A stretch of 10,467 bases of DNA from Escherichia coli (GTDB taxonomy: Bacteria > Pseudomonadota > Gammaproteobacteria > Enterobacterales > Enterobacteriaceae): NCBI GenBank assembly GCA_025544715.1, contig GCA_025544715.1_4109.7. One strand, given 5' to 3'. Position numbers and translations under genes: made by a program. Within the stretch, counting starts at the first letter, position 1. Every line of letters begins with the position of its first letter. Shown piece by piece: positions 207-10,382 of the stretch. The notes under the pieces were generated by a model, which was given only the letters and a program-made list of their open reading frames with translations, was not told where the DNA came from and did no database searches.

Positions 207-279
207 TGTTAAACGTCCTGTAACGCATTCTAACGAGATAAACGGTTTAGTACTGGCATTGTATAGGGTAAATGATTAA

Positions 280-305
280 AGCCCACCAGCGTTAACCAGT
301 GGGCT
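280..305 (-). terminator. possible intrinsic terminator
   Basis: hairpin AGCCCAC..GTGGGCT followed on the minus strand by a partly U-rich tail (CUUUAAUCAUUU); weaker than the two canonical copies. Confidence 0.35.
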
Positions 306-311
306 ATAATC

Positions 312-455
312 TTACATCTTGCGGATAATCTTAACAGTATCTTTCACCGATTTACCGTCTTGCTGGCATTGCTCGATCATCGCGTATTGTTCTGCGGTCA
401 GATCTTCGCCAGTTTTAGCCAATACTGCATCGATGAATGAATCCAGTGCGATCAT
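312..455 (-). CDS. hypothetical protein (47 aa, MIALDSFIDAVLAKTGEDLTAEQYAMIEQCQQDGKSVKDTVKIIRKM)
   Basis: Translated by hand (below ORF-track cutoff); ATG 455 preceded by AAGAGAGAAA purine tract and sigma70-like promoter at 500-527; stop TAA 312-314; hairpin 280-305 downstream. Confidence 0.5.
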   Translation of the reverse strand: MIALDSFIDAVLAKTGEDLTAEQYAMIEQCQQDGKSVKDTVKIIRKM

Positions 456-499
456 TTTGTTTCTCTCTTAGGTTAAGTTAACTACTGTTTATAAAACTT

Positions 500-527
500 A
501 TTATACAGTACTATCAAACATTGTCAA
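500..527 (-). promoter_or_regulatory. sigma70-like early promoter, no stem-loop
   Basis: minus strand TTGACA (522-527), 16 nt spacer with AGTACT, TGTATAAT (-10 at 500-505). Confidence 0.6.
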
Positions 528-554
528 TAGATTTAATAGTACTGGTAATATATT

Positions 555-734
555 TTAGCGGTAATCGTCGTATGCTTTATTAACCTGGCGAATGTAACTT
601 TCAAAGGCTTCGTCTACCGTTTCATACTCCCGAACATAATCACCATAGGAAACCACATACATCCCTTTTTGTTCTTCAAACGTCATGATGATAGAATCCA
701 GGCCGATGATTTCAGTTTTTGCGATAATAGCCAT
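555..734 (-). CDS. hypothetical protein (59 aa; track ORF 555..803 trimmed to MAIIAKTEI...)
   Basis: ATG 734 has SD AAGGAAT 9 nt upstream and lies downstream of promoter -10 (775-780)/-35 (798-803); the track's longer start at 803 is upstream of the -35 and has no SD. Confidence 0.5.
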   Translation of the reverse strand: MAIIAKTEIIGLDSIIMTFEEQKGMYVVSYGDYVREYETVDEAFESYIRQVNKAYDDYR

Positions 735-774
735 TTTAGTATTCCTTAAATTAATATGTTGTCTTGATGTAGGT

Positions 775-803
775 ATTATGCCAGTACTATCAAACGTTGT
801 CAA
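775..803 (-). promoter_or_regulatory. sigma70-like early promoter (variant cassette without GGGGAG hairpin)
   Basis: TTGACA (798-803), 17 nt, CATAAT (775-780); near-identical copy at 3918-3946. Confidence 0.55.
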
Positions 804-822
804 TAGTACTGTGATAATATTT

Positions 823-1035
823 TTAGTTAATGATAGTCAGTGTAAAATTGTAATCCCCTGCCTGGTATAGTACTTTATCGCCGAACGTGCCGACACGTTT
901 CATATTGCAATAGATACCCATAACATTTTTTACATCTTTGATATTCCGAACGCCAGTGATATCCTTGTTGAAATTTTCATGATCAGAAAATAAAACTTGT
1001 TTTGCATTTTTCAGTACAGTGCGGATATTAGCCAT
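823..1035 (-). CDS. hypothetical protein (70 aa, MANIRTV...)
   Basis: ORF track; ATG 1035 directly after cassette stem-loop 1061-1080 and purine-rich SD; stop lies in upstream tract of next promoter. Confidence 0.6.
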   Translation of the reverse strand: MANIRTVLKNAKQVLFSDHENFNKDITGVRNIKDVKNVMGIYCNMKRVGTFGDKVLYQAGDYNFTLTIIN

Positions 1036-1060
1036 TTTGTTTTCTCTCTCTTTGTTAGTA

Positions 1061-1125
1061 GGGAAGTACTAATACTTCCCGTGCCTTGATGTAAACTATT
1101 ATACAGTACTAAAAACTATTGTCAA
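1061..1125 (-). promoter_or_regulatory. promoter + 5' UTR stem-loop cassette
   Basis: TTGACA 1120-1125, 16 nt, TATAAT 1098-1103; stem-loop GGGAAGTA/TACTTCCC 1061-1080. Confidence 0.65.
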
Positions 1126-1133
1126 ACTATTTT

Positions 1134-1334
1134 TTAAATTTTTTTCCATTTCATTTGCCCGGCCGGACGCTGAGCAATAGGAATAAACATATTGCTAATA
1201 TTACTGATATAACCTACCTGGAGATCACGCTGACTACCATACGCCCGACTTGCTGCATTTTTTGCCCCGCGTTCTGAATCGTATACGCCGTTAGATACTG
1301 AAAAACCTACTACACCGAAAGTGAATTGTTTCAT
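1134..1334 (-). CDS. hypothetical protein (66 aa, MKQFTFGVVGFS...)
   Basis: ORF track; ATG 1334 after stem-loop 1356-1374 and SD; stop TAA inside TTTTTTAA tract of cassette at 1120-1140. Confidence 0.6.
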   Translation of the reverse strand: MKQFTFGVVGFSVSNGVYDSERGAKNAASRAYGSQRDLQVGYISNISNMFIPIAQRPAGQMKWKKI

Positions 1335-1355
1335 TTTATATCTCTCTTTGTTAGT

Positions 1356-1414
1356 GGGGAGAACTATTCTCCCCTTGATGTAAACTATTATACAGTACTA
1401 TAAACTATTGTCAA
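1356..1414 (-). promoter_or_regulatory. promoter + 5' UTR stem-loop cassette
   Basis: TTGACA 1409-1414, 16 nt, TATAAT 1387-1392; stem-loop GGGGAGAA/TTCTCCCC 1356-1374. Confidence 0.65.
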
Positions 1415-1428
1415 ACTATTTTTTAATA

Positions 1429-1770
1429 TTATTCAAAATCTTCTGGACCGGACTGATAATCATCTTCACCGTATGCACTTTCTAACTTCTCGCCAGTGTG
1501 ATCATCAGTTAGTGAGTCATCCTCATAGTTCACGTCTACGCCCGTGATGTAAAACTGGCTATCGTCTGGATCATTGAAATTAATTTTCTGAATGTTTACA
1601 ATAACGGTATTGATGCCCAGGACACCGCCATCAGCAGTTACAAAGTACTGATATTTTTCACAACCGCCTGAATTGAAACCGTAATTGATTTCGGCCCGAC
1701 CATCATTTAAACGCAGTGCCTGAGCGATGATTTCGTTTTCAAAGTTAGATTGAGCAATTGCAATAGTCAT
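1429..1770 (-). CDS. hypothetical protein, acidic C-terminus (113 aa; track ORF trimmed to MTIAIAQSNF...)
   Basis: ATG 1770 with SD AAGGAAA 7 nt upstream, immediately downstream of stem-loop 1790-1808 and promoter (-10 1822-1827, -35 1844-1849); the track start at 1863 lies upstream of the promoter. Confidence 0.6.
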   Translation of the reverse strand: MTIAIAQSNFENEIIAQALRLNDGRAEINYGFNSGGCEKYQYFVTADGGVLGINTVIVNIQKINFNDPDDSQFYITGVDVNYEDDSLTDDHTGEKLESAYGEDDYQSGPEDFE

Positions 1771-1789
1771 GATTCGTTTCCTTATTACC

Positions 1790-1849
1790 AGGGGAAACCG
1801 TTTCCCCTCTCGATATAAAACATTATACGCGAATTGAGATAGTATGCAA
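1790..1849 (-). promoter_or_regulatory. promoter + 5' UTR stem-loop cassette
   Basis: TTGCAT 1844-1849, 16 nt, TATAAT 1822-1827; stem-loop AGGGGAA/TTCCCCT 1790-1808. Confidence 0.6.
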
Positions 1850-1903
1850 GTACTTTTTATCAAATACTTTAAAATAGTTTTCAGTACTCAAAGATTATAC
1901 AAT

Positions 1904-1947
1904 AGATACACTCCTGCACCCTGTGGGCTAGTGAGCTATCTCTCAAT
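1904..1947 (-). ncRNA. conserved element copy 1 (candidate small RNA or 5' leader)
   Basis: minus-sense GAGATAGCTCACTAGCCCACAGGGTGCAGGAGTGTATCT behind promoter 1954-1982; alignable with plus copy 6581-6618. Confidence 0.25.
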
Positions 1948-1953
1948 GAATAT

Positions 1954-1982
1954 ATAATAGCAAAATGGCTGACCGAAGTCAA
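1954..1982 (-). promoter_or_regulatory. sigma70-like promoter driving conserved element copy 1
   Basis: minus strand TTGACT (1977-1982), 17 nt, TATTAT (1954-1959); lies directly downstream of the stop at 1992. Confidence 0.4.
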
Positions 1983-1991
1983 CCACTTTTT

Positions 1992-2129
1992 TCATTTATT
2001 TTTAGCTTTTAGAATCGCCGCCTTTCGCGTCATGCCTTGCTTGATGTACTCCTTTACTTTCGCTTTACGTGCTTTCGCTTTATCTGCTTTCGTTTTAGGA
2101 GTACTGTAAATTATACCGTTAGGATTCAT
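1992..2129 (-). CDS. small Lys/Ala-rich basic protein (45 aa, MNPNGIIYSTPKTKADKAKARKAKVKEYIKQGMTRKAAILKAKNK)
   Basis: Translated by hand; ATG 2129 immediately follows the TAA of the upstream 29-aa ORF (TAAATG); GGTGA 6 nt upstream; stop TGA 1992-1994. Confidence 0.4.
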   Translation of the reverse strand: MNPNGIIYSTPKTKADKAKARKAKVKEYIKQGMTRKAAILKAKNK

Positions 2130-2219
2130 TTAAATCACCATAAAGAATAGATAGGTTACTAACAACGCCGCGATCAATGCACCGATCACCGCCGAACTGT
2201 AATAAGCCAATGATTTCAT
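2130..2219 (-). CDS. hydrophobic 29-aa peptide, predicted single transmembrane helix (MKSLAYYSSAVIGALIAALLVTYLFFMVI)
   Basis: Translated by hand; ATG overlaps the TGA of the upstream gene in an ATGA arrangement (translational coupling); uninterrupted hydrophobic core; no own SD. Confidence 0.35.
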   Translation of the reverse strand: MKSLAYYSSAVIGALIAALLVTYLFFMVI

Positions 2220-2368
2220 TTTTTAGCCTGAAAGTAATGTTTAATTTGTGCGGCGGTCAGTGCACAATTACGCAGGAAGTTTTCTGTATAACTGCGACGA
2301 GTACTGAAAGAGAATTGACCTTTGCCGTTACCGATAGTAACATCAAACCGAGCGTTGTATTGTTTCAT
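2216..2368 (-). CDS. hypothetical protein (50 aa; track ORF trimmed to MKQYNARFDV...)
   Basis: ATG 2368 with strong SD AGGAGA, downstream of stem-loop 2387-2406 and promoter (-10 2419-2424, -35 2441-2446). Confidence 0.55.
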   Translation of the reverse strand: MKQYNARFDVTIGNGKGQFSFSTRRSYTENFLRNCALTAAQIKHYFQAKK

Positions 2369-2386
2369 TTTGTTTCTCCTGTTATT

Positions 2387-2446
2387 GGGGAGAATCATTT
2401 CTCCCCTTCATGTAAAACATTATACAGTACTAAAAACTAATTGCAA
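2387..2446 (-). promoter_or_regulatory. promoter + 5' UTR stem-loop cassette
   Basis: TTGCAA 2441-2446, 16 nt, TATAAT 2419-2424; stem-loop GGGGAGAA/TTCTCCCC 2387-2406. Confidence 0.65.
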
Positions 2447-2449
2447 GTA

Positions 2450-2596
2450 CTATTTTTTAGATTTACGCAAACTTTCTACCATCTCAGGAGTAAGGCCAGG
2501 CGGGTAGGAAACCACTTCATCAACGAAACGTAAAGGGAATACCCCAGCGAAAGGTGAACATGCTTTCTTAGTATTACTCTTTTTTGATGCTTTCAT
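2450..2596 (-). CDS. small basic protein (48 aa, MKASKKSNTKKACSPFAGVFPLRFVDEVVSYPPGLTPEMVESLRKSKK)
   Basis: Translated by hand; ATG 2596 with SD AAGGAAT ~8 nt upstream, after stem-loop 2616-2635; stop TAG 2450-2452 abuts -35 of the next cassette. Confidence 0.5.
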   Translation of the reverse strand: MKASKKSNTKKACSPFAGVFPLRFVDEVVSYPPGLTPEMVESLRKSKK

Positions 2597-2615
2597 TTCA
2601 TATTCCTTAATTAGT

Positions 2616-2675
2616 GGGGAGAATCATTTCTCCCCTTCATGTAAAACATTATACAGTACTGAAAACTAATTGCAA
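2616..2675 (-). promoter_or_regulatory. promoter + 5' UTR stem-loop cassette
   Basis: TTGCAA 2670-2675, 16 nt, TATAAT 2648-2653; stem-loop 2616-2635, identical in sequence to the one at 2387-2406. Confidence 0.65.
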
Positions 2676-2875
2676 GTACTTTCTGAAAGTAAATGCTCAT
2701 AAGCTGCATTGACTACATTTTCAATAACCGACTGTACAGGAAGATCCCCCACGTCCTGGCTATAGTAGAAATCGCTTACAGTGGTGTTATCGTATGCAAA
2801 TACTTTACCAGGTACGGCATCAATCACATACATATTAACCTTTAAGATGTCGATTTTATCCTGTACAGTAAGCAT
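2666..2875 (-). CDS. hypothetical protein (69 aa)
   Basis: ORF track; ATG 2875 is 5 nt after the stop of 2881..3138 (operon partner); last codons and stop read through the spacer and -35 of cassette 2616-2675. Confidence 0.55.
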   Translation of the reverse strand: MLTVQDKIDILKVNMYVIDAVPGKVFAYDNTTVSDFYYSQDVGDLPVQSVIENVVNAAYEHLLSESTCN

Positions 2876-2880
2876 ATTAA

Positions 2881-3138
2881 TTAACCTTTTAAGTACTGGC
2901 TTAAGTAGTCTTGTTGATCTTCGGTGGTTGCCGCCATCTTCCCTAGTACTGGATTGATGATATAATCCTGATCCGCCTTATCAGTACTAGCAACCGGACG
3001 GATACGGGCCATTTCCTGGGCTTGTTCCACACTGTAACGCTCATAAAGGCGGCATTCTTCCGGTGTTAGCATTGCATCAATACGTTTCATTGGTTTAATG
3101 ATGCTTTCAACTTCATTGAGTACTTGATTAACGTTCAT
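2881..3138 (-). CDS. hypothetical protein (85 aa)
   Basis: ORF track; GGGGA SD 8 nt upstream of ATG 3138; no own cassette promoter, likely co-transcribed with 3190..3459; contains four AGTACT sites in three frames. Confidence 0.6.
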   Translation of the reverse strand: MNVNQVLNEVESIIKPMKRIDAMLTPEECRLYERYSVEQAQEMARIRPVASTDKADQDYIINPVLGKMAATTEDQQDYLSQYLKG

Positions 3139-3189
3139 GGTATAATCCCCAATATAAGCGGCCTAAATCAACCGCTAACGATGTTTTGA

Positions 3190-3459
3190 TTAATAGGTGT
3201 AGGGTTGACGCTCAAACAATGATTGCACGTTGTACGCCCCGCTAATGGGCTTCGCTGTCAAATCAATTTTATATTGTTCACGCTTAAAGATAATAAAACG
3301 ACAATTGTTCTTAACATCAAAATTGATTGAACGTTCCAGGAGTTTACCATCGTGCACAAATACAAGATAACCGCTCGCTACTTGTTTTGTAGTACTGGTT
3401 GCAACCATAGACCGACGAACATGTGTACCTGCATCGATTAAAGTACTGATATTTTTCAT
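3190..3459 (-). CDS. hypothetical protein (89 aa)
   Basis: ORF track; strong SD AAGAGGA 9 nt upstream of ATG 3459; preceded by a distinct stem-loop (3498-3526). Confidence 0.6.
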   Translation of the reverse strand: MKNISTLIDAGTHVRRSMVATSTTKQVASGYLVFVHDGKLLERSINFDVKNNCRFIIFKREQYKIDLTAKPISGAYNVQSLFERQPYTY

Positions 3460-3497
3460 TATACTATCCTCTTAAGTTAGTTTAATTTCTTTCCCCT

Positions 3498-3534
3498 ATG
3501 CAGACACTATATCAAAGTATCTGCATAAAGTAAA
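3498..3534 (-). promoter_or_regulatory. possible weak promoter plus distinct 5' stem-loop for operon 3459->2666
   Basis: minus strand TTTACT (3529-3534), 17 nt, TATAGT (3506-3511); inverted repeat ATGCAGA/TCTGCAT 3498-3526; not the cassette type. Confidence 0.3.
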
Positions 3535-3539
3535 GCTAA

Positions 3540-3884
3540 TTAAAGATCTTTTTTGCGTTTAACATCAGTTACCGAACTGTAAACAGTGATATTATTGTCA
3601 CGGCAAAAACGTGAAAGGTATGATCCGCGTGTAAACTCCTTCCCTTCCATATCAATAACCTTGCTAAATTCTTCCATTGCTACGGTGTCAAAGTGATCCC
3701 CATAACCATATTGGAACGGCACGTTTACCACTTCAATAAAATTACCATCGATTTCAACGTCTACACTTAAAGAAAAATAAGTGTTACCATATGAAGCCTG
3801 GAACCAACGCCGAGCGGCAATATGTACAACTTCAACAGAAGACAGGTTGATATTTTGTGCAGCGATGGTGTTGATGTTAGCCAT
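3540..3884 (-). CDS. hypothetical protein (114 aa, MANINTIAAQ...)
   Basis: ORF track; SD AAGAGGAAA; hairpin-less cassette promoter 3918-3946. Confidence 0.65.
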   Translation of the reverse strand: MANINTIAAQNINLSSVEVVHIAARRWFQASYGNTYFSLSVDVEIDGNFIEVVNVPFQYGYGDHFDTVAMEEFSKVIDMEGKEFTRGSYLSRFCRDNNITVYSSVTDVKRKKDL

Positions 3885-3917
3885 TTTTGTTTCCTCTTAG
3901 TTGTCTTGATAAAATCT

Positions 3918-3946
3918 ATTATGCCAGTACTATCAAACTATGTCAA
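3918..3946 (-). promoter_or_regulatory. sigma70-like early promoter (variant cassette without GGGGAG hairpin)
   Basis: TTGACA 3941-3946, 17 nt, CATAAT 3918-3923; near-identical to 775-803. Confidence 0.6.
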
Positions 3947-3965
3947 TAGTACTGTGATAATAATT

Positions 3966-4109
3966 TTACTTACTTTTTGCTTTCTTTACAGCTTCCACCT
4001 GGTCGGCCCACTCTTTACCCCATACTTGAGCGTTATAGTGATACTGACAAAGAGCAACGCCCCGTTTCAAACCAGTAATAGATTTTTTACCACATTGACA
4101 AGTTTTCAT
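3966..4109 (-). CDS. small Cys/His-containing protein, possible zinc-binding (47 aa, MKTCQCGKKSITGLKRGVALCQYHYNAQVWGKEWADQVEAVKKAKSK)
   Basis: Translated by hand; ATG 4109 with SD AAGAGGAAA after stem-loop 4128-4147; C-x-C ... C-x2-H spacing. Confidence 0.5.
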   Translation of the reverse strand: MKTCQCGKKSITGLKRGVALCQYHYNAQVWGKEWADQVEAVKKAKSK

Positions 4110-4127
4110 TTTTAGTTTCCTCTTAGT

Positions 4128-4187
4128 GGGGAGAACCATTTCTCCCCTTGATGTAATGTATTATACTTTATCTGACTTACTTTGCAA
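4128..4187 (-). promoter_or_regulatory. promoter + 5' UTR stem-loop cassette
   Basis: TTGCAA 4182-4187, 16 nt, TATAAT 4160-4165; stem-loop GGGGAGAA/TTCTCCCC 4128-4147. Confidence 0.65.
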
Positions 4188-4194
4188 GTACTTT

Positions 4195-4422
4195 TTAGTT
4201 TAATTCATCCAGGCATAAGATACGATCTACGCCGAGATCCGTTAAGCTAATGGTTGGCACTTGATAGGTTTCAATGTATTCTACACTAGCCCACTGACCG
4301 AACTCATTCACCGCCCAGGTATTCATTGCAAAATGTAATTCCGCACCTTTCTTATTAGTAATTACAGCAACAGTAGAAGAAGTGCCAGTAGTACCAGTTA
4401 CATAAGCGATTACGATAGCCAT
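4195..4422 (-). CDS. hypothetical protein (75 aa)
   Basis: ORF track; SD AGGAAT; promoter -10 4456-4461, -35 4479-4484. Confidence 0.6.
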   Translation of the reverse strand: MAIVIAYVTGTTGTSSTVAVITNKKGAELHFAMNTWAVNEFGQWASVEYIETYQVPTISLTDLGVDRILCLDELN

Positions 4423-4455
4423 TGTTTTGATTCCTATTCAGTAGTTGATGTATGT

Positions 4456-4484
4456 ATTATGTCAGTACTTAAAACTATTGTCAA
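4456..4484 (-). promoter_or_regulatory. sigma70-like early promoter, no stem-loop
   Basis: TTGACA 4479-4484, 17 nt, CATAAT 4456-4461. Confidence 0.55.
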
Positions 4485-4492
4485 ACTATTTT

Positions 4493-4645
4493 TTAAAGTT
4501 TATCAATGATTGATGCCGTTTCATTGATAGTCTTGCCGTGTTTTGCACACGCAATAACTGCTTTAAATTCCTTTGATGACCAATCTTTCTTGCTGCATAC
4601 TGACATTACTTGTAACGTGAAACAATCCAGTTCATAAGTATTCAT
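4493..4645 (-). CDS. hypothetical protein (50 aa, MNTYELDCFTLQVMSVCSKKDWSSKEFKAVIACAKHGKTINETASIIDKL)
   Basis: Translated by hand; ATG 4645 with SD GAGGA 8 nt upstream; cassette 4666-4718; stop TAA inside TTTTTTAAA tract of next cassette. Confidence 0.5.
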   Translation of the reverse strand: MNTYELDCFTLQVMSVCSKKDWSSKEFKAVIACAKHGKTINETASIIDKL

Positions 4646-4665
4646 CTTTATATCCTCAGTTAGTT

Positions 4666-4718
4666 AAGGTGTTTCGCCTTGATGTAATTAATTATACGCT
4701 AATCTCTTAATCGTGCAA
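4666..4718 (-). promoter_or_regulatory. promoter + weak 5' stem-loop
   Basis: TTGCAC 4713-4718, 16 nt, TATAAT 4691-4696; short hairpin AAGGTG/CGCCTT 4666-4680. Confidence 0.55.
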
Positions 4719-4825
4719 GTACTTTTTATTAGTTTTTATAAAATACTTTCTACGCCCTCAATCGCATTCTAACGACCATAACGCCACCAGCTAGGGCGAT
4801 GTATCAGATAATCAGTTTAATGCGT

Positions 4826-4839
4826 TAGAATCGATTCTA
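4826..4839. repeat. 14-bp perfect palindrome TAGAATCGATTCTA in a non-coding spacer
   Basis: self-complementary; overlaps an inverted copy of the TTCTAACG motif. Confidence 0.8.
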
Positions 4840-4871
4840 GGCGGTGCTAGTGGACTGGAATACTATAGACA

Positions 4872-4899
4872 CAAAAAAGCCCACTGTTTATAGTGGGCT
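4872..4899 (-). terminator. Rho-independent terminator
   Basis: minus strand AGCCCACT-ATAAAC-AGTGGGCT followed by UUUUUUGU; preceded by AGTACTGAATCA. Confidence 0.7.
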
Positions 4900-4920
4900 A
4901 GTGATTCAGTACTTTAATTG

Positions 4921-5403
4921 TTATGCTTCAACTTTGCGATGAGATTCGATCCATTCCTCACGGGTCAATCCGCTTTCTTTGATAGCATCCAGTACTACCG
5001 CGATGCAATTACCGCGTACTGGTACAGTGTATTCCTCGCCATTATCCAGAACTACAGTAACACGTTCTTGAATCCATTTTTTAGGTTTAGATTCTGGCTT
5101 ATCTTCACCATACTTAACCGCCAGGGCTTTATGTGCCATTTCGACAACTACTTCCAGATCCAATCCAGACACCGCCGCCTGGATACTTTCAATTGTTGCT
5201 TGCAGTTCTGCTTCACGGGCTTTTTTCTGTTCTTCCAGTTCTGCTACCTTTTTGGCTTGCAGTTCTTTCGCTTCGCTGTACGCAATGTTAAAATTGTTGC
5301 GTACTGCTTTCATGGTATCGTTATCCAGGTCAGCCAGCAATTCAGCAGCAATAACAGTATCGTTTGAAATCAGTGCTTTCAGGAATGATTTTACATTAGC
5401 CAT
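4921..5403 (-). CDS. hypothetical protein with central Glu/Lys/Ala-rich predicted coiled-coil (160 aa; start moved to MANVKSF...)
   Basis: The track start at 5418 is a TTG codon; ATG 5403 has SD GAGGA 9 nt upstream; promoter -10 TAGAAT 5527-5532, -35 5549-5554; intrinsic terminator downstream (4872-4899). Confidence 0.65.
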   Translation of the reverse strand: MANVKSFLKALISNDTVIAAELLADLDNDTMKAVRNNFNIAYSEAKELQAKKVAELEEQKKAREAELQATIESIQAAVSGLDLEVVVEMAHKALAVKYGEDKPESKPKKWIQERVTVVLDNGEEYTVPVRGNCIAVVLDAIKESGLTREEWIESHRKVEA

Positions 5404-5526
5404 TTTATAAATCCTCAATTAAAGTTTAGTTTACGTTAGTTAGTGTATCAAAGTTTTATTGACGTGTCCAGTTTTTCATTCGACTTACTGGCGGTCTACT
5501 TAGTGTTCCCCGTCTTGATGTAATAC

Positions 5527-5554
5527 ATTCTACGCCTTTTTGTGGTAATGTCAA
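5527..5554 (-). promoter_or_regulatory. sigma70-like promoter with long (~115 nt) leader
   Basis: TTGACA 5549-5554, 16 nt, TAGAAT 5527-5532; ATG at 5403. Confidence 0.5.
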
Positions 5555-5608
5555 CTACTTTTTTAAAACTATTTTCAAAGTATTCTAGTACTACAATCCT
5601 ACAATAAC

Positions 5609-5635
5609 AAAAAAGCCCACTGCTTATAGTGGGCT
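5609..5635 (-). terminator. Rho-independent terminator (near-identical copy of the 4872-4899 module)
   Basis: AGCCCACT-ATAAGC-AGTGGGCT followed by UUUUUUGUUAUUG; preceded by AGTACTGAATCA. Confidence 0.7.
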
Positions 5636-5652
5636 AGTGATTCAGTACTAGA

Positions 5653-5952
5653 TTATAAACAGTTAATTACTCCTGTATGCGTTACTTTCTCCGTATCCAT
5701 GACAGTGACAGAACCACGTTTAGCACTGGCATCATAATAAATTGTTGTGCTACCTTTATCATCTTCTTCATGGAACGGGCCGTTTTTAAATGCTTCCGGC
5801 TGCAATTCCAGATCCTTTAAAACAATCTCGCCTGTACTTTCATTGGTCATTGCTACTGTGCACTGAATGAATTTATCACTACTCACATCTAACGATGCGT
5901 TAACAGCGAAAGAGGAAACAGATAAAGCCAGGGCGATGATTGCAATTTTCAT
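5653..5952 (-). CDS. predicted secreted/periplasmic protein with N-terminal signal peptide (99 aa, MKIAIIALALSVSSFAVNA|S...)
   Basis: ORF track; hydrophobic N-terminus with AxA-like cleavage motif; its promoter cassette lies across the N gap at 6127-6186; terminator 5609-5635 downstream. Confidence 0.6.
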   Translation of the reverse strand: MKIAIIALALSVSSFAVNASLDVSSDKFIQCTVAMTNESTGEIVLKDLELQPEAFKNGPFHEEDDKGSTTIYYDASAKRGSVTVMDTEKVTHTGVINCL

Positions 5953-6110
5953 TTGNNNNNNNNNNNNNNNNNNNNNNNNNNNNNNNNNNNNNNNNNNNNN
6001 NNNNNNNNNNNNNNNNNNNNNNNNNNNNNNNNNNNNNNNNNNNNNNNNNNNNNGTTAACAGCGAAAGAGGAAACAGATAAAGCCAGGGCGATGATTGCAA
6101 TTTTCATTTG
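5899..6110. repeat. exact 57-bp direct duplication flanking the N gap (5899-5955 = 6054-6110)
   Basis: identical strings GTTAACAGCGAAAGAGGAAACAGATAAAGCCAGGGCGATGATTGCAATTTTCATTTG on both sides; most likely overlapping contig ends, so the true sequence probably joins 5955 to 6111. Confidence 0.8.
5956..6053. other. 98-nt run of N (assembly or scaffold gap)
   Basis: unbroken N run; both flanks are an identical 57-bp sequence. Confidence 0.95.
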
Positions 6111-6126
6111 ATTATCCTTAGTTACC

Positions 6127-6186
6127 AGGGGGAACCTCTCCCCCTTGCGATGTAAAATATTATACAGTACTAAAAACTATTATCAA
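6127..6186 (-). promoter_or_regulatory. promoter + 5' UTR stem-loop cassette (serves the gene across the N gap)
   Basis: TTGATA 6181-6186, 16 nt, TATAAT 6159-6164; stem-loop AGGGGGA/TCCCCCT 6127-6145. Confidence 0.6.
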
Positions 6187-6191
6187 GTACT

Positions 6192-6428
6192 TTATGATTT
6201 TTTATAAAACATTTCAGCAGTGATATTTTTACCCGTTGGCTGTACTTTATCCAGAATTTTTTGATGCCCTGGAAGTCCAAATGAATATGATCCGTAAACC
6301 GTAAACCAGTAGTTACCCTCAGTGTTTACATGTACAGCACAATAGGGAACGCCCCGCGATTCATCACCAATAAAGTGTGATACCGTTCCCGTTACATTAG
6401 CAGACGTTGATTTGATTTGTTCAAGCAT
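6192..6428 (-). CDS. hypothetical protein (78 aa)
   Basis: ORF track; SD AAGGAAT; cassette with stem-loop 6449-6467, -10 6477-6482, -35 6499-6504. Confidence 0.6.
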   Translation of the reverse strand: MLEQIKSTSANVTGTVSHFIGDESRGVPYCAVHVNTEGNYWFTVYGSYSFGLPGHQKILDKVQPTGKNITAEMFYKKS

Positions 6429-6448
6429 TTTCTTATTCCTTAGTTACC

Positions 6449-6504
6449 AGGGGGAACCGCTCCCCCTATGCAAAACATTATACGCGTTTAAAAACTAATA
6501 GCAA
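6449..6504 (-). promoter_or_regulatory. promoter + 5' UTR stem-loop cassette
   Basis: TTGCTA 6499-6504, 16 nt, TATAAT 6477-6482; stem-loop AGGGGGA/TCCCCCT 6449-6467. Confidence 0.6.
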
Positions 6505-6537
6505 GTATTTTAATAAAAAGTATTTGAAAAATAATTG

Positions 6538-6566
6538 TTGACAACTGCATCCAGTACTGGCATAAT
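6538..6566 (+). promoter_or_regulatory. plus-strand sigma70-like promoter, divergent from the 6449-6504 cassette
   Basis: TTGACA 6538-6543, 17 nt spacer containing AGTACT, CATAAT 6561-6566; no plus-strand ORF downstream. Confidence 0.5.
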
Positions 6567-6572
6567 TACTAC

Positions 6573-6680
6573 ATAAAGACGAGATAGTCACTAACCCACC
6601 GGGTGCATAGATCCGTCTATTAAATGATTCAGTACTGAAAAAGTAACGGGGAGTTATTATCTCCCCGCGTTGTTATTTGG
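6573..6680 (+). ncRNA. candidate small non-coding RNA (~105 nt) of the conserved-element family
   Basis: own promoter 6538-6566, conserved element 6581-6618, palindrome TTCAGTACTGAA 6628-6639, terminator hairpin 6647-6667 with U tract; longest ATG ORF is 4 codons. Confidence 0.35.
6647..6680. terminator. bidirectional intrinsic terminator
   Basis: CGGGGAG-TTATTAT-CTCCCCG hairpin; U-rich on the plus side (GUUGUUAUUU) and on the minus side (UUACUUUUUC); ends both the plus small transcript and minus gene 6673..6894. Confidence 0.6.
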
Positions 6681-6894
6681 TAAGGTATAAACAGAAGTCA
6701 CCTTTATTTGCTACGCCGCCAGTGTAACGCGATGAATAGTTAGAAACGTCCTGGACTTCTGCTATTACCAGTGTATCATCATTCAATTCGTCGCAGAAGC
6801 AAACGGCTGGATCTTTTACGCCGATCTTGTCGGCATGTTCCCGCATAGATTTAACCAGTGCTTCCAGTTGAGAAAGAGTAGTGATATTAGCCAT
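6673..6894 (-). CDS. hypothetical protein (73 aa; track ORF trimmed to MANITTLSQ...)
   Basis: ATG 6894 with SD GAGGAAA downstream of stem-loop 6914-6931; the track start at 6924 lies inside the stem-loop; bidirectional terminator 6647-6667 just after the stop. Confidence 0.6.
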   Translation of the reverse strand: MANITTLSQLEALVKSMREHADKIGVKDPAVCFCDELNDDTLVIAEVQDVSNYSSRYTGGVANKGDFCLYLTK

Positions 6895-6913
6895 TGTATT
6901 TTCCTCATTACCA

Positions 6914-6972
6914 GGGAGAACCATTTCTCCCCTCTATGTAAACTATTATACAGTACTGGAAACTAATTGCAA
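6914..6972 (-). promoter_or_regulatory. promoter + 5' UTR stem-loop cassette
   Basis: TTGCAA 6967-6972, 16 nt, TATAAT 6945-6950; stem-loop GGGAGAA/TTCTCCC 6914-6931. Confidence 0.65.
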
Positions 6973-6980
6973 GTACTTTT

Positions 6981-7184
6981 TTAATTTAATTGCTTTAAAA
7001 CATACTCAAAGACACCACGCACATCATTGATCATCGCCTGGCGGTTAGCAGGTAACGCACCAAGATCGCCACTATCCCAGGCATTGATAAAACTCCCCAA
7101 ATCATGATAGATTTTATTCTGTAAGCCGATCAACTGTAATTCTTTTTCTTCAAGCTCTTTAATACGGTCGATTAAAAGACTCAT
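6981..7184 (-). CDS. hypothetical protein (67 aa; trimmed to MSLLIDRIKELEE...)
   Basis: ATG 7184 with SD GAGGA; 17 nt after the stop of 7202..7489; shares a 20-nt RBS/start module with that gene. Confidence 0.5.
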   Translation of the reverse strand: MSLLIDRIKELEEKELQLIGLQNKIYHDLGSFINAWDSGDLGALPANRQAMINDVRGVFEYVLKQLN

Positions 7185-7201
7185 TAGATAATCCTCAGTA
7201 C

Positions 7202-7489
7202 TTAATTGTAAGATCCGCAACGGTTACAATAGTGCCCGTCTTCCTCGTCATCGTCAACGAATTGACTAACGAAATTATCTACTTTCTCTTTGAGATTCTG
7301 ATAATTGTTTTCTACTTCCTTTAAACGTTCCTGGTAGTATTCCAGTGCTTGCACATACGCCGCCTCAGCCGTTTTAGCTCTTAAGGCTAAATTCATGCCA
7401 CGCGTTTCATCGTACATCCAAAAGCCATCGGTGCACTCACTGATTGACAATGATTTGGTTAACACTTTATAGTCAATTACTTTGCTCAT
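7202..7489 (-). CDS. hypothetical protein with C-terminal C-x2-C (95 aa; trimmed to MSKVIDYK...)
   Basis: ATG 7489 with SD GAGGA 9 nt upstream; the track start at 7528 lies inside the hairpin 7508-7526; no own promoter, likely co-transcribed with 7546..7785. Confidence 0.55.
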   Translation of the reverse strand: MSKVIDYKVLTKSLSISECTDGFWMYDETRGMNLALRAKTAEAAYVQALEYYQERLKEVENNYQNLKEKVDNFVSQFVDDDEEDGHYCNRCGSYN

Positions 7490-7507
7490 TAGATAATCCT
7501 CAGTAAA

Positions 7508-7526
7508 GGCGGGAACCACACCCGCC
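7508..7526 (-). terminator. intercistronic GC hairpin (attenuator or processing site?)
   Basis: GGCGGG-AACCACA-CCCGCC between stop at 7546 and ATG at 7489; followed by UUUACU on the minus strand; preceded by the 14-bp palindrome 7531-7544. Confidence 0.3.
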
Positions 7527-7530
7527 ATTG

Positions 7531-7544
7531 ATTCAGTACTGAAT
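7531..7544. repeat. 14-bp perfect palindrome ATTCAGTACTGAAT
   Basis: self-complementary; related copies TGATTCAGTACT at 4902-4913, 5638-5649, 6625-6636 and in reverse at 10171-10185. Confidence 0.8.
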
Positions 7545-7545
7545 G

Positions 7546-7785
7546 TTACATTCCAACCATTGCAGCACGGATCGCCGTAGTGCTATACTTGAATCCGTCC
7601 GGCGTTGTAGTAGTACCGTTGGCTTTTAATCTGCGGTACATACATTGGGCCGCAATATCTTTAGTTTTACATTGTGCGATGCAACTTTGAGCAAGCCGAT
7701 ATAATGACTCACCGTTATTAATCCACAATGAAACATTCCAATGAGTTTTGTTTTTGTGCCCGTTGTAAGTTTTAGTACTAGCCAT
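7546..7785 (-). CDS. hypothetical protein, paralog of 9143..9382 (79 aa)
   Basis: ORF track; SD GAGGA; cassette 7808-7869; shares GHKNKTHWNVSLWINN and an identical C-terminal 19 aa with 9143..9382. Confidence 0.65.
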   Translation of the reverse strand: MASTKTYNGHKNKTHWNVSLWINNGESLYRLAQSCIAQCKTKDIAAQCMYRRLKANGTTTTPDGFKYSTTAIRAAMVGM

Positions 7786-7807
7786 TTTTAAATCCTCGTT
7801 TGATTGA

Positions 7808-7869
7808 GCAGGGGAACCATTCCCCCGCCTCGATATAAAGTATTATACGCCGTTAAACTTAGTTTGCAA
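7808..7869 (-). promoter_or_regulatory. promoter + 5' UTR stem-loop cassette
   Basis: TTGCAA 7864-7869, 16 nt, TATAAT 7842-7847; stem-loop 7808-7828. Confidence 0.65.
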
Positions 7870-7882
7870 GTACTTTTTTAAA

Positions 7883-8494
7883 TTAATATTCGATTGATTC
7901 TACTACGCCATCAATCACATTGAATTGATATTCGTTACCCTCGATCAGTGCTACGATGTTTTCAGTAGTGAATTGATCCTCATATGCATTCTCTAAATCA
8001 CGGTACAACTTGCGTGACAATTCACGAATAGTATCAGTGAGTAGTTCCTCAAGCTCATTAACTAACGTTTCTTGTTTTGCGGTTAAATCAGTGTAAGCCG
8101 ATTCAATGTACCCGCTTACAGTATTCTCATGCGAGTAGCGAGAGTGAGAACGCTTTACACTCATTGCCAAATCATCTTCATTCAGCAGGTGACGGATTGA
8201 GCGATACTTAGTTAACGCCTTAACCTTGCGTAAAAACTTCACTGCGTCAACGTGGTCAGTACTGATTGATGCACCGTCACCTTGCGACCAAAAACCACTG
8301 AATTGCAATTCCGCGTCAGTAATACCATACTCCGGCAACAATGTTTCTTTATAGTATTCATATACGCCCTCAGAAAAGAAATCATCACCGCTTGAACGTT
8401 CCCGATCCCGAACCAGTTCGATAGCTGACGTTTGTTGTTCTGCGTTCAATTCAGAAAAAGCCATAACATAAGTAGTAGTAGTGATAGTTTTCAT
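7883..8494 (-). CDS. hypothetical acidic protein (203 aa), largest ORF in the window
   Basis: ORF track; SD GAGGG 9 nt upstream of ATG 8494; promoter -10 8527-8532, -35 8549-8554, with a second complete cassette further upstream. Confidence 0.7.
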   Translation of the reverse strand: MKTITTTTYVMAFSELNAEQQTSAIELVRDRERSSGDDFFSEGVYEYYKETLLPEYGITDAELQFSGFWSQGDGASISTDHVDAVKFLRKVKALTKYRSIRHLLNEDDLAMSVKRSHSRYSHENTVSGYIESAYTDLTAKQETLVNELEELLTDTIRELSRKLYRDLENAYEDQFTTENIVALIEGNEYQFNVIDGVVESIEY

Positions 8495-8526
8495 TTTGTA
8501 ACCCTCATTCAGTAGTTGATGTAAGT

Positions 8527-8554
8527 ATTATACGCTTTTAAAAACAATTGTCAA
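8527..8554 (-). promoter_or_regulatory. sigma70-like early promoter, no stem-loop
   Basis: TTGACA 8549-8554, 16 nt, TATAAT 8527-8532. Confidence 0.55.
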
Positions 8555-8603
8555 ACTATTTTATCAGGGGAGTTTTTCGTAAGTCTTACTCCTGGACTAC
8601 TTA

Positions 8604-8671
8604 ACGGGGAGTTACTTATTCATTCCCCGTCCTGATGTAAAACATTATACGCCTTTAAACATAGTTTGCAA
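8604..8671 (-). promoter_or_regulatory. orphan promoter + stem-loop cassette with no ORF of its own (tandem with 8527-8554)
   Basis: TTGCAA 8666-8671, 16 nt, TATAAT 8644-8649; stem-loop ACGGGGA/TCCCCGT 8604-8630; the next ATG-initiated ORF is only 5 codons. Confidence 0.5.
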
Positions 8672-8708
8672 GTACTTTTTAAAAAATAGTTTTAATCACT
8701 TTTATATA

Positions 8709-8752
8709 GATACACTCCCGCACCCTATGGGCTATCGCCTTGTGTCCGGCTT
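8709..8752 (-). ncRNA. conserved element copy 4 (candidate small RNA or 5' leader)
   Basis: minus-sense ..GATAGCCCATAGGGTGCGGGAGTGTATCT behind promoter 8759-8787. Confidence 0.25.
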
Positions 8753-8758
8753 GTAAGT

Positions 8759-8787
8759 ATTATCTCACTAAGCCGGATAATGGTCAA
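8759..8787 (-). promoter_or_regulatory. sigma70-like promoter driving conserved element copy 4
   Basis: minus strand TTGACC (8782-8787), 17 nt, GATAAT (8759-8764). Confidence 0.35.
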
Positions 8788-8793
8788 GTACTT

Positions 8794-9060
8794 TTATTCA
8801 AGTACTGCAATCTTTTTAGTACTGTACACAGTAACACGGTTGCCCTTGCGGTCGTGCTTTATTTCTACCACGCGACGCGATACACTATCAGGACGCTTTA
8901 AAGCAGATAGCCAGTACTGAATAGATCGGGCTGTACTTCTCTTTACTACGGCCCAACGTTTACCACGTTCCGATTGTACGCCCATATCTTTAAACGTCGC
9001 CCCGTCCTGGCGTGCTGCAATCCGAGCAAGTTCACGCGTAGCAAAGTAAGTAATATTCAT
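8794..9060 (-). CDS. hypothetical basic protein (88 aa; trimmed to MNITYFATRELARIAARQ...)
   Basis: ATG 9060 with GGGG SD-like 9 nt upstream; the track start at 9114 lies upstream of the -10 (9097-9102). Confidence 0.5.
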   Translation of the reverse strand: MNITYFATRELARIAARQDGATFKDMGVQSERGKRWAVVKRSTARSIQYWLSALKRPDSVSRRVVEIKHDRKGNRVTVYSTKKIAVLE

Positions 9061-9096
9061 GCTGATACCCCTATCGTTGTTGTATAAAAGAAATCT

Positions 9097-9121
9097 ATTA
9101 TAAAGTACTATCACCGTGCAA
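9097..9121 (-). promoter_or_regulatory. degenerate cassette promoter (spacer only 13 nt)
   Basis: TATAAT 9097-9102 and TTGCAC 9116-9121 are too close for a canonical sigma70 promoter; looks like a cassette with ~3 nt deleted from the spacer. Confidence 0.25.
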
Positions 9122-9142
9122 TAGTACTTTTAATCTATTCTC

Positions 9143-9382
9143 TTACATTCCAACCATTGCAGCACGGATCGCCGTAGTACTATACTTGAATCCGTCCGGT
9201 GTTTTATCTTGTCCAGTCTGTTCTAAAAATAGCATCATATGACGGGCCGCATCATTGCGATTAGTGTTAGCGGCAATAAAGTCCAGGGCCAACCGATATA
9301 ATGATTCATCATTATTAATCCAAAGGCTTACATTCCAATGAGTTTTATTTTTGTGACCTAAGAACATTTTTGATTTAGCCAT
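9143..9382 (-). CDS. hypothetical protein, paralog of 7546..7785 (79 aa)
   Basis: ORF track; SD GAGGA 9 nt upstream of ATG 9382; cassette 9406-9462; near-identical nucleotide sequence to 7546..7785 at both ends. Confidence 0.65.
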   Translation of the reverse strand: MAKSKMFLGHKNKTHWNVSLWINNDESLYRLALDFIAANTNRNDAARHMMLFLEQTGQDKTPDGFKYSTTAIRAAMVGM

Positions 9383-9405
9383 TTTAAAATCCTCTGAATT
9401 ATGGC

Positions 9406-9462
9406 GGGGAACTATTCCCCACCTGATAGAAAGTATTATACATTAATCGAATTACTTTGCAA
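9406..9462 (-). promoter_or_regulatory. promoter + 5' UTR stem-loop cassette
   Basis: TTGCAA 9457-9462, 16 nt, TATAAT 9435-9440; stem-loop GGGGAA/TTCCCC 9406-9420. Confidence 0.65.
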
Positions 9463-9465
9463 GTA

Positions 9466-9657
9466 CTATTTTTTGCAATATTCGTAAATCTCTTTATATC
9501 CGCTTAGTACTACATCGCCCCGCTGCAATGTGATAGATTCGAAATCATCATGATTAACAGCGTTTAACCAGTTTAAAGCCTTCATCTTATTTGGGTATTT
9601 TTGTTCGTGCTGGTTTTCCCCATCAATCAACCAGTACTGTATAATTATCTCACGCAT
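9466..9657 (-). CDS. hypothetical protein (63 aa)
   Basis: ORF track; AAGGG SD; 11 nt after the stop of 9669..10031 (operon partner); stop TAG just upstream of the next cassette -35. Confidence 0.55.
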   Translation of the reverse strand: MREIIIQYWLIDGENQHEQKYPNKMKALNWLNAVNHDDFESITLQRGDVVLSGYKEIYEYCKK

Positions 9658-9668
9658 ACATATTACCC

Positions 9669-10031
9669 TTATTCGTAAATCTTGCCACTGTCAGCCCATA
9701 CCAGGAAACGCGGCATATTATCCCATGCATCTTGTTTCAAGTTTAAACCGTGTAATACTTCGGTACTTTCCATTCCTGGTACTGGTTTACTATACACCGC
9801 AAACATTTCGCCCATGTACTGATAAGCCATCGTTAAATCACTGGCGATCATCTTATGGATCATCGCATCAAGCATCACAGTAGCGGCGTATTGTTCACGC
9901 TTAAGCGGTAACATTTTAATAAGTTCCCGATAAGCTGAAATATGAATTTTTACAGTCTCAGCGGGGAGATCTTTCATCTCTTCACGAAAGTTAACCAGGT
10001 TAGCAATGATTTTAGTGATTTGAGTCGCCAT
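9669..10031 (-). CDS. hypothetical protein (120 aa)
   Basis: ORF track; ATG 10031 downstream of imperfect stem-loop 10052-10076 and promoter (-10 TAGAAT 10087-10092, -35 TTGCAA 10109-10114). Confidence 0.65.
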   Translation of the reverse strand: MATQITKIIANLVNFREEMKDLPAETVKIHISAYRELIKMLPLKREQYAATVMLDAMIHKMIASDLTMAYQYMGEMFAVYSKPVPGMESTEVLHGLNLKQDAWDNMPRFLVWADSGKIYE

Positions 10032-10051
10032 CGTTTTAATCTCTTAAAAGT

Positions 10052-10114
10052 GAGTCGGGAGCGTATCCCCCGTCTCGATGTAAAACATTCTACACCTTTC
10101 CCAATACGTTGCAA
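10052..10114 (-). promoter_or_regulatory. promoter + imperfect 5' stem-loop
   Basis: TTGCAA 10109-10114, 16 nt, TAGAAT 10087-10092; imperfect hairpin 10052-10076. Confidence 0.55.
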
Positions 10115-10348
10115 GTACTTTCTACAAATACTTTTAAAATAGTTTTCTTTCTATATAGGAGTACTATCATCCAGTACTGAATCAATCAAGGGAGTACAAT
10201 TATTCAGTACTATACCGTAAAACGGCCTCAGTCGCTTTCTAACGCATTAATACACCTAAGCTATACATTTGCACCACTCCCAACAATCCAGGGCGTTACA
10301 GGCCGTTTAAACGCGTTAAATTATTTTCAATTATTTTGTTTTTAGCTA

Positions 10349-10376: not shown

Positions 10377-10382
10377 TACTAC

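Follow-up and report, generated by a model that had tools for sequence, protein, structure and literature searches.

In plasmid cer sites, about 180 bp of accessory sequence beside the core is bound and wrapped by PepA together with ArgR and carries phased A-T tracts (PMC2655662, PMC2831885). The same PepA/ArgR-wrapped site contains the promoter Pcer (PMC2831885, PMC5935869, PMC2655662, PMC4393325). The palindromes of the E. coli deo operators have been published, and binding of DeoR was reported at a partial TTAGAATA site (PMC5326754). For phage T5, the accessible part of an analysis of the repeat regions stresses conservation and DnaA boxes, names inverted repeats, and does not single out the motif considered here (Davison, bioRxiv 10.1101/866236). 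We analyzed a stretch of 10,467 nucleotides (contig GCA_025544715.1_4109.7, hereafter the window), which belongs to an Asteriusvirus (Rak2-like) jumbo coliphage and is about 88-92% identical to CRJP21, 121Q and PBECO4 by megablast. Our subject is a non-coding element of about 35 bp that recurs in the spacers of this DNA and has counterparts in T5 and in plasmid cer-like sites. A literature search with the motif strings returned no relevant paper, and the identity across lineages with the T5 first-step-transfer repeats and the cer-like sites appears to be new to the available literature.

The spacer motifs are copies of one non-coding element

The original prediction had pointed to conserved motifs in three spacers, at 207-281 (S1), 4740-4870 (S2) and 10140-10330 (S3). 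We recovered its first motif, CGC(A/T)TTCTAACG(A/C), at 4763-4775, at 10233-10245 and, once the coordinates were corrected from 222-234, at 224-236, together with an inverted copy (GCGTTAGAATCG) at 4822-4833. The second motif, TTAAACG(G/T)CCTGTAACGC, was found at 209-226 on the plus strand and at 10293-10310 on the other strand. The 14-bp palindrome TAGAATCGATTCTA (4826-4839) and the imperfect inverted repeat (10218-10236 against 10294-10312) were likewise present. Alignment of the copies revealed that the first motif is the 5' half, and the second motif the 3' half, of an element of about 32-40 bp that reads GCGTTAGAAW-GCG-N4-AGG-N-CGTTT(T/A)A. A fuller consensus is (T/C)GCGTTAGAA(T/A)-GCG-(A/T)T(T/C)N-AGG-N-CGTTT(T/A)A(C/G). 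With these results, we conclude that the spacer motifs are copies of one non-coding DNA element. Three full copies lie on the minus strand, and a diverged copy and a half copy lie on the plus strand; a degenerate copy is listed with them (PWM, position weight matrix score):

206-237, minus strand: E1, full copy CTCGTTAGAATGCGTTACAGGACGTTTAAC; motif matches, PWM 41.7, invariant in five Asteriusvirus genomes
3147-3180, minus strand: degenerate "B-type" copy CGTTAGCGGTTGATTTAGGCCGCTTATATTGGGG; BLAST match to T5 6251-6276, found in CRJP21 at 8128 with PWM 13.2
4745-4776, minus strand: E2a, full copy GTCGTTAGAATGCGATTGAGGGCGTAGAAA; motif matches, PWM 37.7, present in relatives
4821-4851, plus strand: E2b, diverged full copy TGCGTTAGAATCGATTCTAGGCGGTGCTAG, back-to-back with E2a; sequence and inverted-repeat folding
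10214-10246, minus strand: E3a, full copy TGCGTTAGAAAGCGACTGAGGCCGTTTTACGG (TGCGTTAGAAAGCGACTGAGGCCGTTTTAC on the coding minus strand); motif matches, PWM 45.4, present in relatives
10293-10313, plus strand: E3b, half copy with the 3' half only (GCGTTACAGGCCGTTTAAACG), back-to-back with E3a; sequence match, present in relatives

The copies sit at the boundaries of early transcription units, past terminators, either singly or back-to-back. Because E2a/E2b and E3a/E3b are back-to-back, they account for the two inverted repeats that had been noticed in the spacers. The E2 pair is separated by 50 bp, measured from CTAACG to TTAGAA, and the 3' half of E2b has diverged and includes the 14-bp palindrome. 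About 25 bp downstream of E2a lies the next gene's own early promoter. The ATG at 206 (open reading frame [ORF] 9-206) has the AGGA of E1 as its Shine-Dalgarno sequence, and the degenerate copy stands directly before the ATG at 3138 and resembles the T5 B site GCGTTTTAGGCCGCTTATTTTGGGC.

Several properties of the element are evident from the aligned copies. CG steps and T-runs recur every 10 bp (CGTTAGAATG, CGATTGAGGA, CGTTTTACGG) and would therefore lie on one face of the helix. At the position of a possible -10 hexamer, the copies read TAGAAT in E1, E2a and E2b and TAGAAA in E3a. The inverted repeat in S2 folds better than shuffled sequences (z -2.9), and that in S3 folds no better than shuffles (z -1.45). 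A GAAT-GCG-ATTC hairpin, judged by reading the sequences, is not kept between copies. None of the three spacers contains a convincing ORF, and tRNA and Rfam searches (Rfam E<=1) gave no match at the sites; we therefore rejected a tRNA or Rfam RNA, and the earlier view that these are cis elements rather than genes held. The ColE1 cer site has no Rfam family either.

The element is confined to the terminal repeat and kept in relatives

A motif search in the genome and its relatives had been set beforehand as a test of the motifs, and its outcome was a non-random and conserved distribution: the motifs were neither at chance frequency nor absent from relatives. Within the window, the 12-mer has three exact copies and five matches with at most two mismatches, compared with 1.5 expected, and the 18-mer has two matches with at most three mismatches, compared with 0.03 expected. 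In CRJP21, a complete relative of 346 kb, the 12-mer occurs exactly three times, always at the orthologous site. A PWM scan of this genome at a threshold of at least 12 bits returned strong matches at 1477, 6688 and 10551, weak matches at 8128 and 8326, and no others, and a scan of the shuffled genome returned none.

All of these matches fall within the first 10.6 kb of a 20,152-bp terminal repeat. The CRJP21 record contains this repeat as a perfect direct repeat (gp_1 equals gp_584, with 0 mismatches), and a second record, vB_Ec-M-J, has the matching annotation "Direct Terminal Repeats 1-21525". The window corresponds to about 1.26-10.8 kb of the CRJP21 repeat in reverse orientation, and almost all of its ORFs are on the minus strand; given this position and these small minus-strand ORFs, we conclude that it is a block of small early genes. 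Because three to five copies are restricted to the terminal repeat of a 346-kb genome, the element is not a general promoter class. A general middle or late promoter class was rejected on the same count, and the promoter motifs of the CBB paper (TGAAACG, ATAAATA) differ from the element.

Across five Asteriusvirus genomes the copies are kept, with the exception of phAPEC6, which is without the S2 pair. Among these relatives, insertions and deletions vary the region of AGTACT units beside E3a, and the element itself is constant. A Klebsiella Rak2-like phage carries a related copy, TTACAATGCGTTACAGGACGTTTTAGGGGTA, in the opposite orientation and adjoining a gene start.

The element recurs in T5 and in unrelated phages

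A pattern scan of IMG/VR found the element in T5-like phages and in several unrelated contig families. By BLAST, a 41-nt query matched 502 phage records, of which 98 cover at least 80% of the query; the groups matched include Tequintavirus-type phages, Stephanstirmvirinae (phi92-like) and Drexlerviridae (T1-like). The 121Q copy is 90% identical to T5-like phages over 98% of 41 nt (E 8e-6). Each terminal repeat of the T5-like phages has two copies in inverted orientation, separated by about 3 kb. In T5 itself, copies lie at 9350-9368 (+), 6271-6289 (-) and, with one mismatch, 5282-5300 (+). The copy at 9350 is just past a terminator and at the left boundary of the injection stop signal as annotated, and the copy at 6271 is in a divergent intergenic region. 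Both are followed by a perfect LexA-box-like palindrome and DnaA boxes. The LexA-box-like palindromes (CTGTATAAATATACAG) lie 25-45 bp downstream of the element, at 6213-6228 and 9411-9426 in T5 (contig L110), and an unrelated 59-kb contig (L048) also has a perfect palindrome of this kind at the same distance of 25-45 bp.

The layout around the element differs between groups. Downstream there are AGTACT units in the window and a LexA-like palindrome in T5, and orientation relative to genes is reversed in the T1-like phage tonnikala as well as in the Klebsiella Rak2-like phage; in the phi92-like phage alia one copy faces a convergent gene. TAGAAA, as in E3a, is also the form of most T5 B sites and of a minority of the T5-like A sites. 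Shared proteins that could explain a common operator in the T5 and Asteriusvirus repeats were considered and rejected: a tblastn comparison of the terminal-repeat ORFs with T5 first-step-transfer DNA gave no convincing homology, only four short marginal matches (E 0.002-0.008) that we discounted.

The element forms one end of a plasmid cer-like accessory arm

The 41-nt query also matched small ColE2-type (MOBQ4) plasmids and some large plasmids, with BLAST E-values of 1e-3 and 3e-4 against collections of 28 Gb and 7 Gb. In ColE2-type plasmids the element is located some 180 nt upstream of rep and borders an Xer core directly on its left, in the layout TGCGTCAGGAAGCGACTGAGGGCGTTTTACGG followed directly by GGTACGTACAA-CAGGAG-TTATGGTAAAT, with an ARG box (GTGCATAGTTATGCA) about 70 bp further left. 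The general plasmid form is the element directly left of GGTACGTACAA-CR-TTATGGTAAAT (CR, central region). From this arrangement of sequences, the plasmid locus is identified as a cer-like multimer-resolution site. E3a and the ColE2-type site share 35 identical positions over a 41-column alignment, and the 121Q copy shares 32 of 36; in sequence, the element agrees with the recombinase-proximal accessory arm. At the TAGAAT position the plasmid variants are CAGGAA, CAGAAA or CAGAGA. A back-to-back pair is present in an IncX1 plasmid, where the distance from CTAACG to TTAGAA is 50 bp, the same as in the S2 pair.

The alignment to the plasmid cer-like sites is local, spanning 23-41 bp, and the other approximately 140 bp of accessory DNA is missing in the phage. 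A search for the XerC arm, the central region of 6-8 bp and the XerD arm (TTATGNTAAAT) found no TTATG.TAAA anywhere in the window. From the ColE1 sequence, we infer that the -35 region of Pcer overlaps the stretch homologous to the element. As a separate observation, an E. coli chromosomal island (L123, NZ_CP025892.1, about 1952300) carries the element in fusion with a short Xer-like core, and the next 2.5 kb or so have no annotated genes; this copy may mark the end of an integrated element.

The original prediction had called the motifs protein-binding or replication/recombination-related sites. The likeness to cer-like sites and to T5 supports the protein and recombination side of that suggestion. 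No link to a replication origin, T4-type or other, emerged; the spacers are without DnaA boxes and show no similarity to the G4 primase-dependent origin. The phage copies have no Xer core. A G4-type primase priming signal, an idea prompted by the ColE2 "ssi" literature, was rejected with best local alignment scores of 10-16 on either strand and no significant match. We also compared the element by eye with the consensuses of Fis, IHF, ArgR, LexA, DnaA, PurR, CpxR, OmpR, ArcA and RcsB; none fits, and this comparison is at the level of a lead only.

A host-protein docking site is the favored reading

We hypothesize that a bacterial (host) protein complex, DNA-binding or architectural, docks at the element, and we give this reading a probability of roughly 0.4. 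The same module makes up the recombinase-proximal end of the cer-type accessory arm in ColE2-type and IncF plasmids, and in the phage it is uncoupled from any Xer core. A host protein would bind the element, with PepA as the lead candidate from the cer context alone, and binding could organize, insulate or time early transcription or the handling of incoming DNA. By analogy with T5, the first 10.6 kb or so of the terminal repeat may be the DNA that enters and is expressed first.

We favor this reading because the core GCG-N4-AGG-N-CGTTTTA spans contexts with differing transcriptional layouts, because orientation relative to genes is not conserved, and because TAGAAT becomes TAGAAA in phages or CAGGAA/CAGAAA in plasmids. 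Two further reasons are that conservation is phased on one helical face and that copies pair up and, in T5, adjoin other host-factor sites. The variable orientation and the altered TAGAAT agree better with a DNA site than with a promoter or an RNA. The equal back-to-back spacing of 50 bp in this phage and in the IncX1 plasmid is also supportive.

A number of results weigh against a docking site. The Asteriusvirus relatives are about 90-98% alike, which is too close for phylogenetic footprinting, and the PWM was trained on sequences selected by the pattern, so that its information content is partly circular. The window is without an ARG-box pattern and the phage copies are without an Xer core; the analogy with cer therefore covers only about 35-40 bp. 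The binding protein is our inference, PepA has no defined consensus, and alignment revealed no similarity to the PepA-bound carAB operator, which was rejected as an identity for the element. Some copies sit exactly where a promoter and a Shine-Dalgarno sequence would be expected. Finally, an IMG/VR test for a universal spacing of inverted pairs returned mostly chance matches with a flat spacing distribution, against which 121Q and a 419-kb contig carrying a different repeat were the only ones to stand out. The latter (IMG/VR contig 3300044557_000292, 419,707 bp; L138, L145, L183, L198) has at least four intergenic inverted pairs of the form GCGTTCTAACGCG...GTGAGTAAAAAAACAC...CGCGTTAGAA(T/C)GC with a spacing of 57-66 bp, and the pairs in this jumbo-phage contig are possibly a related but distinct repeat family.

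As an alternative, each copy could be a compact sigma-70 promoter that in some cases includes a ribosome-binding site, a reading that we regard as unlikely overall but possible for some copies. E1, E2a and E3a are co-oriented with the genes and stand past terminators. In such a promoter TAGAAT would be the -10 hexamer, which it matches at five of six positions of the consensus, the G at -14 would act as in the extended -10 of deoP1/P2, GCG would be a G+C-rich discriminator, and transcription would start about 7 nt downstream, at AGG. E1 is the sole recognizable promoter candidate before ORF 9-206, AGG is 7-9 nt before an ATG in four lineages (E1 in the window, phi92-like alia, contig L103 and contig L029), and TGTTAGAAT is used by E. 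coli deoP1 and deoP2. However, no copy in the window has a -35-like hexamer upstream, the bases at -15/-14 are CG and not TG, and the promoter scan did not list the sites. Position -7 is A in E3a and in the T5-like sites with TAGAAA, the plasmid copies read CAGGAA or CAGAAA, and the reversed or convergent orientations in T1-like, Klebsiella and alia phages are not those of a promoter. Conservation also runs about 25 bp downstream of the hexamer, the annotated T5 pre-early promoters lie elsewhere, and three to five copies per 346 kb are few. Another reading is attractive as a lead, although we consider it improbable: the 5' half (CGTTAGAAT) would be a half-operator of host DeoR, whose full operator is TGTTAGAA joined to TTCTAACA. 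DeoR octamers would bridge copies until deoxyribose-5-phosphate from phage-induced breakdown of host DNA relieved binding. In E. coli K-12, where the two operators are 599 bp apart, the deo O1/O2 half-site agrees with this sequence in eight of nine bases; binding to a partial site is on record (PMC5326754), E2b and contig L013 each have inverted half-sites separated by a 4-bp spacer, and T5 carries dmp by annotation and degrades host DNA. Against this, no copy contains the contiguous 16-bp palindrome, since the half-site (C/G)GTTAGAA stands alone and the halves in E2b are 4 bp apart. The first base is C or G-C instead of T, the conserved GCG-N4-AGG-N-CGTTTTA has no counterpart in the deo operators, and plasmid copies are without TTAGAA.

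The homology to the flank of the XerC arm could also mean that the copies are degenerate or unconventional recombination sites, of the Xer type or another site-specific type, whose duplicates in the terminal repeats could circularize the genome or resolve concatemers. Both terminal repeats hold every copy, as a direct repeat, and the chromosomal island joins the element to a short Xer-like core; yet the XerD arm is nowhere in the window, the sequence that follows the element differs between phage groups, and cer recombination needs roughly 180 bp of accessory DNA with an ARG box about 70-100 bp from the core, which is missing here. We assign this possibility a low probability. We are only slightly less doubtful that the copies are neutral pieces of mobile intergenic terminator-promoter cassettes swapped among phages and plasmids, or DNA-injection stop signals of the T5 type. 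Promoter and terminator modules recur through the mosaic early region, phAPEC6 is without the S2 pair, and the T5 A copy is where the annotated injection stop signal has its left edge. Near-identity in lineages that share no genes, together with few fixed sites, argues for selection rather than for a passive cassette, and the element is also present in phages and plasmids without two-step DNA injection, which speaks against a stop signal.

Returning to the docking site, a broader claim can be made with more reserve, and we hold it to be possible rather than probable. One cis element may be common to unrelated virulent enterobacterial phages (T5-like, Rak2-like jumbo, phi92-like, T1-like) and cer-type plasmid sites as a docking site for a common host complex, of the PepA or DeoR type or another, which mobile DNAs would use to organize, protect or time the expression of newly arrived DNA. 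In T5, it could be a missing component of the control of injection stop and first-step transfer, which has long been unexplained. If a host factor binds, the element would join the T5 first-step-transfer repeats, the plasmid cer accessory arm (and Pcer, as placed above) and the early region of Rak2-like jumbo phages, the regulation of which is almost unstudied. A 35-bp probe would then be a handle on how the host recognizes and organizes incoming phage DNA, and the element would help, as a compact marker, to annotate the early or first-entering DNA of new phage genomes. If it is merely a weak promoter, the finding is an ordinary one.

AGTACT is a separate, genome-wide motif

The following units lie beside E3a in S3:

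10160-10211, no strand assigned: AGTACT/AGTACA units, instances of a genome-wide motif; their number varies among relatives

These had been described as four AGTACT-containing units spaced 15-21 bp apart. The repeats are present, although they consist of three AGTACT (10160, 10173, 10206) and one AGTACA (10193), and the start-to-start distances are 13, 20 and 13 bp. They are also not local to S3, as the window contains 61 AGTACT compared with 2.8 expected. In CRJP21 there are 893 compared with 117 expected (7.6-fold), which makes AGTACT the most over-represented 6-bp palindrome, and at least eight other 6-bp palindromes are wholly absent from that genome, including CGTACG, CGGCCG, CCATGG, AGGCCT and AGCGCT. 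By a crude ORF mask, most copies fall inside ORFs. In early promoters AGTACT flanks the -35 (AGTAC-TTGCAA) and the -10 (AGTACTGTATAAT), and it precedes terminators as TTCAGTACTGAATCA. We conclude that AGTACT is a phenomenon separate from the element.

Two side observations concern this motif. The form TTCAGTACTGAATCA(C/T), whose core is a 12-bp palindrome, is found repeatedly between a stop codon and an intrinsic terminator, on the minus strand at 4908-4925, 5644-5661, 6631-6648 and 7535-7552. A Klebsiella Rak2-like phage has 137 AGTACT in 21 kb.

Context of the copies in the early region

Most early genes come with a sigma-70-type promoter of their own and many with a terminator, and these modules are repeated at many places per genome in the mosaic early region. 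Pfam searches with ten window ORFs were uninformative. The features around the copies are as follows:

281-306, minus strand: hairpin seen by reading the sequence, taken here as the intrinsic terminator of the upstream minus-strand gene and not listed by the terminator scan; it precedes E1 by about 45 bp
283-290, minus strand: Chi site GCTGGTGG, within the 281-306 hairpin
4784-4791, minus strand: Chi site, just upstream of E2a
4878-4899, minus strand: intrinsic terminator of gene 4921-5418 (terminator scan), immediately upstream, in the sense of transcription, of the E2 pair
10087-10119, minus strand: early sigma-70-type promoter of the first gene, AGTAC-TTGCAA-N16-TAGAAT (promoter scan)
10349-10376, plus strand: outward-facing sigma-70 promoter TTGACT-N16-TATAAT, divergent from the gene array (promoter scan and five-genome comparison)

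S3 is the inner edge of a gene-free leader of about 1.7 kb that separates the genome end from the first gene. In the five genomes, both hexamers of the promoter at 10349-10376 are invariant and its spacer is variable. Its transcript has a predicted start near 10383 and a stem GCGGAT...ATCCGT, with no Rfam match, and the transcript of 10349-10467 (+), which is directed towards the genome end, may be a non-coding RNA. The leader (window 10032-10467 and beyond; contig L001 10350-12087) opens the terminal repeat and contains three sigma-70 promoters that face outward; past each of them come short structured segments that end in CGYCCAAAATTC. Near the genome end there is an iteron-like repeat block, TAGCCGT(C/T) / TAGCCATC. 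These features could be small RNAs, packaging sites or end-recognition sites.

Elsewhere in the window, a near-identical leader, TTTACAT(C/G)AAGGGGAGAAATGATTCTCCCC, comes after many of the early promoters, with a conserved hairpin in the 5' untranslated region just past the predicted start. Examples on the minus strand are at about 2395-2420, 2625-2650, 1365-1390, 6135-6160 and 6920-6945. Chi is strongly enriched, with 18 copies on the CRJP21 gene strand compared with 1.1 expected, and the 20-kb terminal repeat accounts for nine of the 18. Two Chi sites form an inverted pair some 580 bp from the left end of the genome, and Chi adjoins S1 and S2 and, in 121Q, also S3. The enrichment suggests protection of linear ends in relation to RecBCD.

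Comparison with known systems

The T4-type PeSL cassettes are promoter-early stem-loop modules repeated before most early genes. Like them, the setting here consists of conserved intergenic terminator/promoter modules flanking small early genes in a mosaic region, whereas the element has merely three to five copies and is distinct from the early promoters that bear AGTACT. With the E. coli deo operators and deoP1-P2 the element shares the GTTAGAAT core, including the TAGAAT -10 hexamer (PMC5326754). It differs from these operators in having no second operator half and in a conserved 3' half that is unrelated to them.

The comparison with cer-type sites extends further. In ColE2-type and IncF plasmids, the 35-40 bp left of the XerC arm read TGCGTCAGGAAGCGACTGAGGGCGTTTTACGGGGTA, and a weaker version, GCGCTGAACGCGTTTTAGCG followed directly by GTGCGTACAA, occupies this position in ColE1 cer. 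T-tracts are phased at 10 bp in the element and in cer alike (PMC2831885). In contrast, the phage copies read TTAGAA(T/A) where the plasmids read TCAGGAA or CCAGAAA, and they form inverted pairs and stand at transcription-unit boundaries.

T5 differs in its surroundings: the window is without a LexA-type palindrome, the spacers are without a DnaA box, and the two DnaA-box matches in the window (1654 and 4541) are within ORFs. Two-step injection is not known for Rak2-like phages. The element is nevertheless like the T5 repeat regions 1-3, which belong to the first-step-transfer DNA and the injection-stop region, in being non-coding, conserved and present in both orientations. The likeness extends to the sequence itself, with GCGTTAGAATGCGATCTAGGACGTTTTAGG in T5 and GCGTTAGAATGCGATTGAGGACGTTTTACGG in 121Q. 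In T5 and in the Rak2-like phages alike, the element is part of early-expressed DNA, inside a long direct terminal repeat together with the first-expressed genes.

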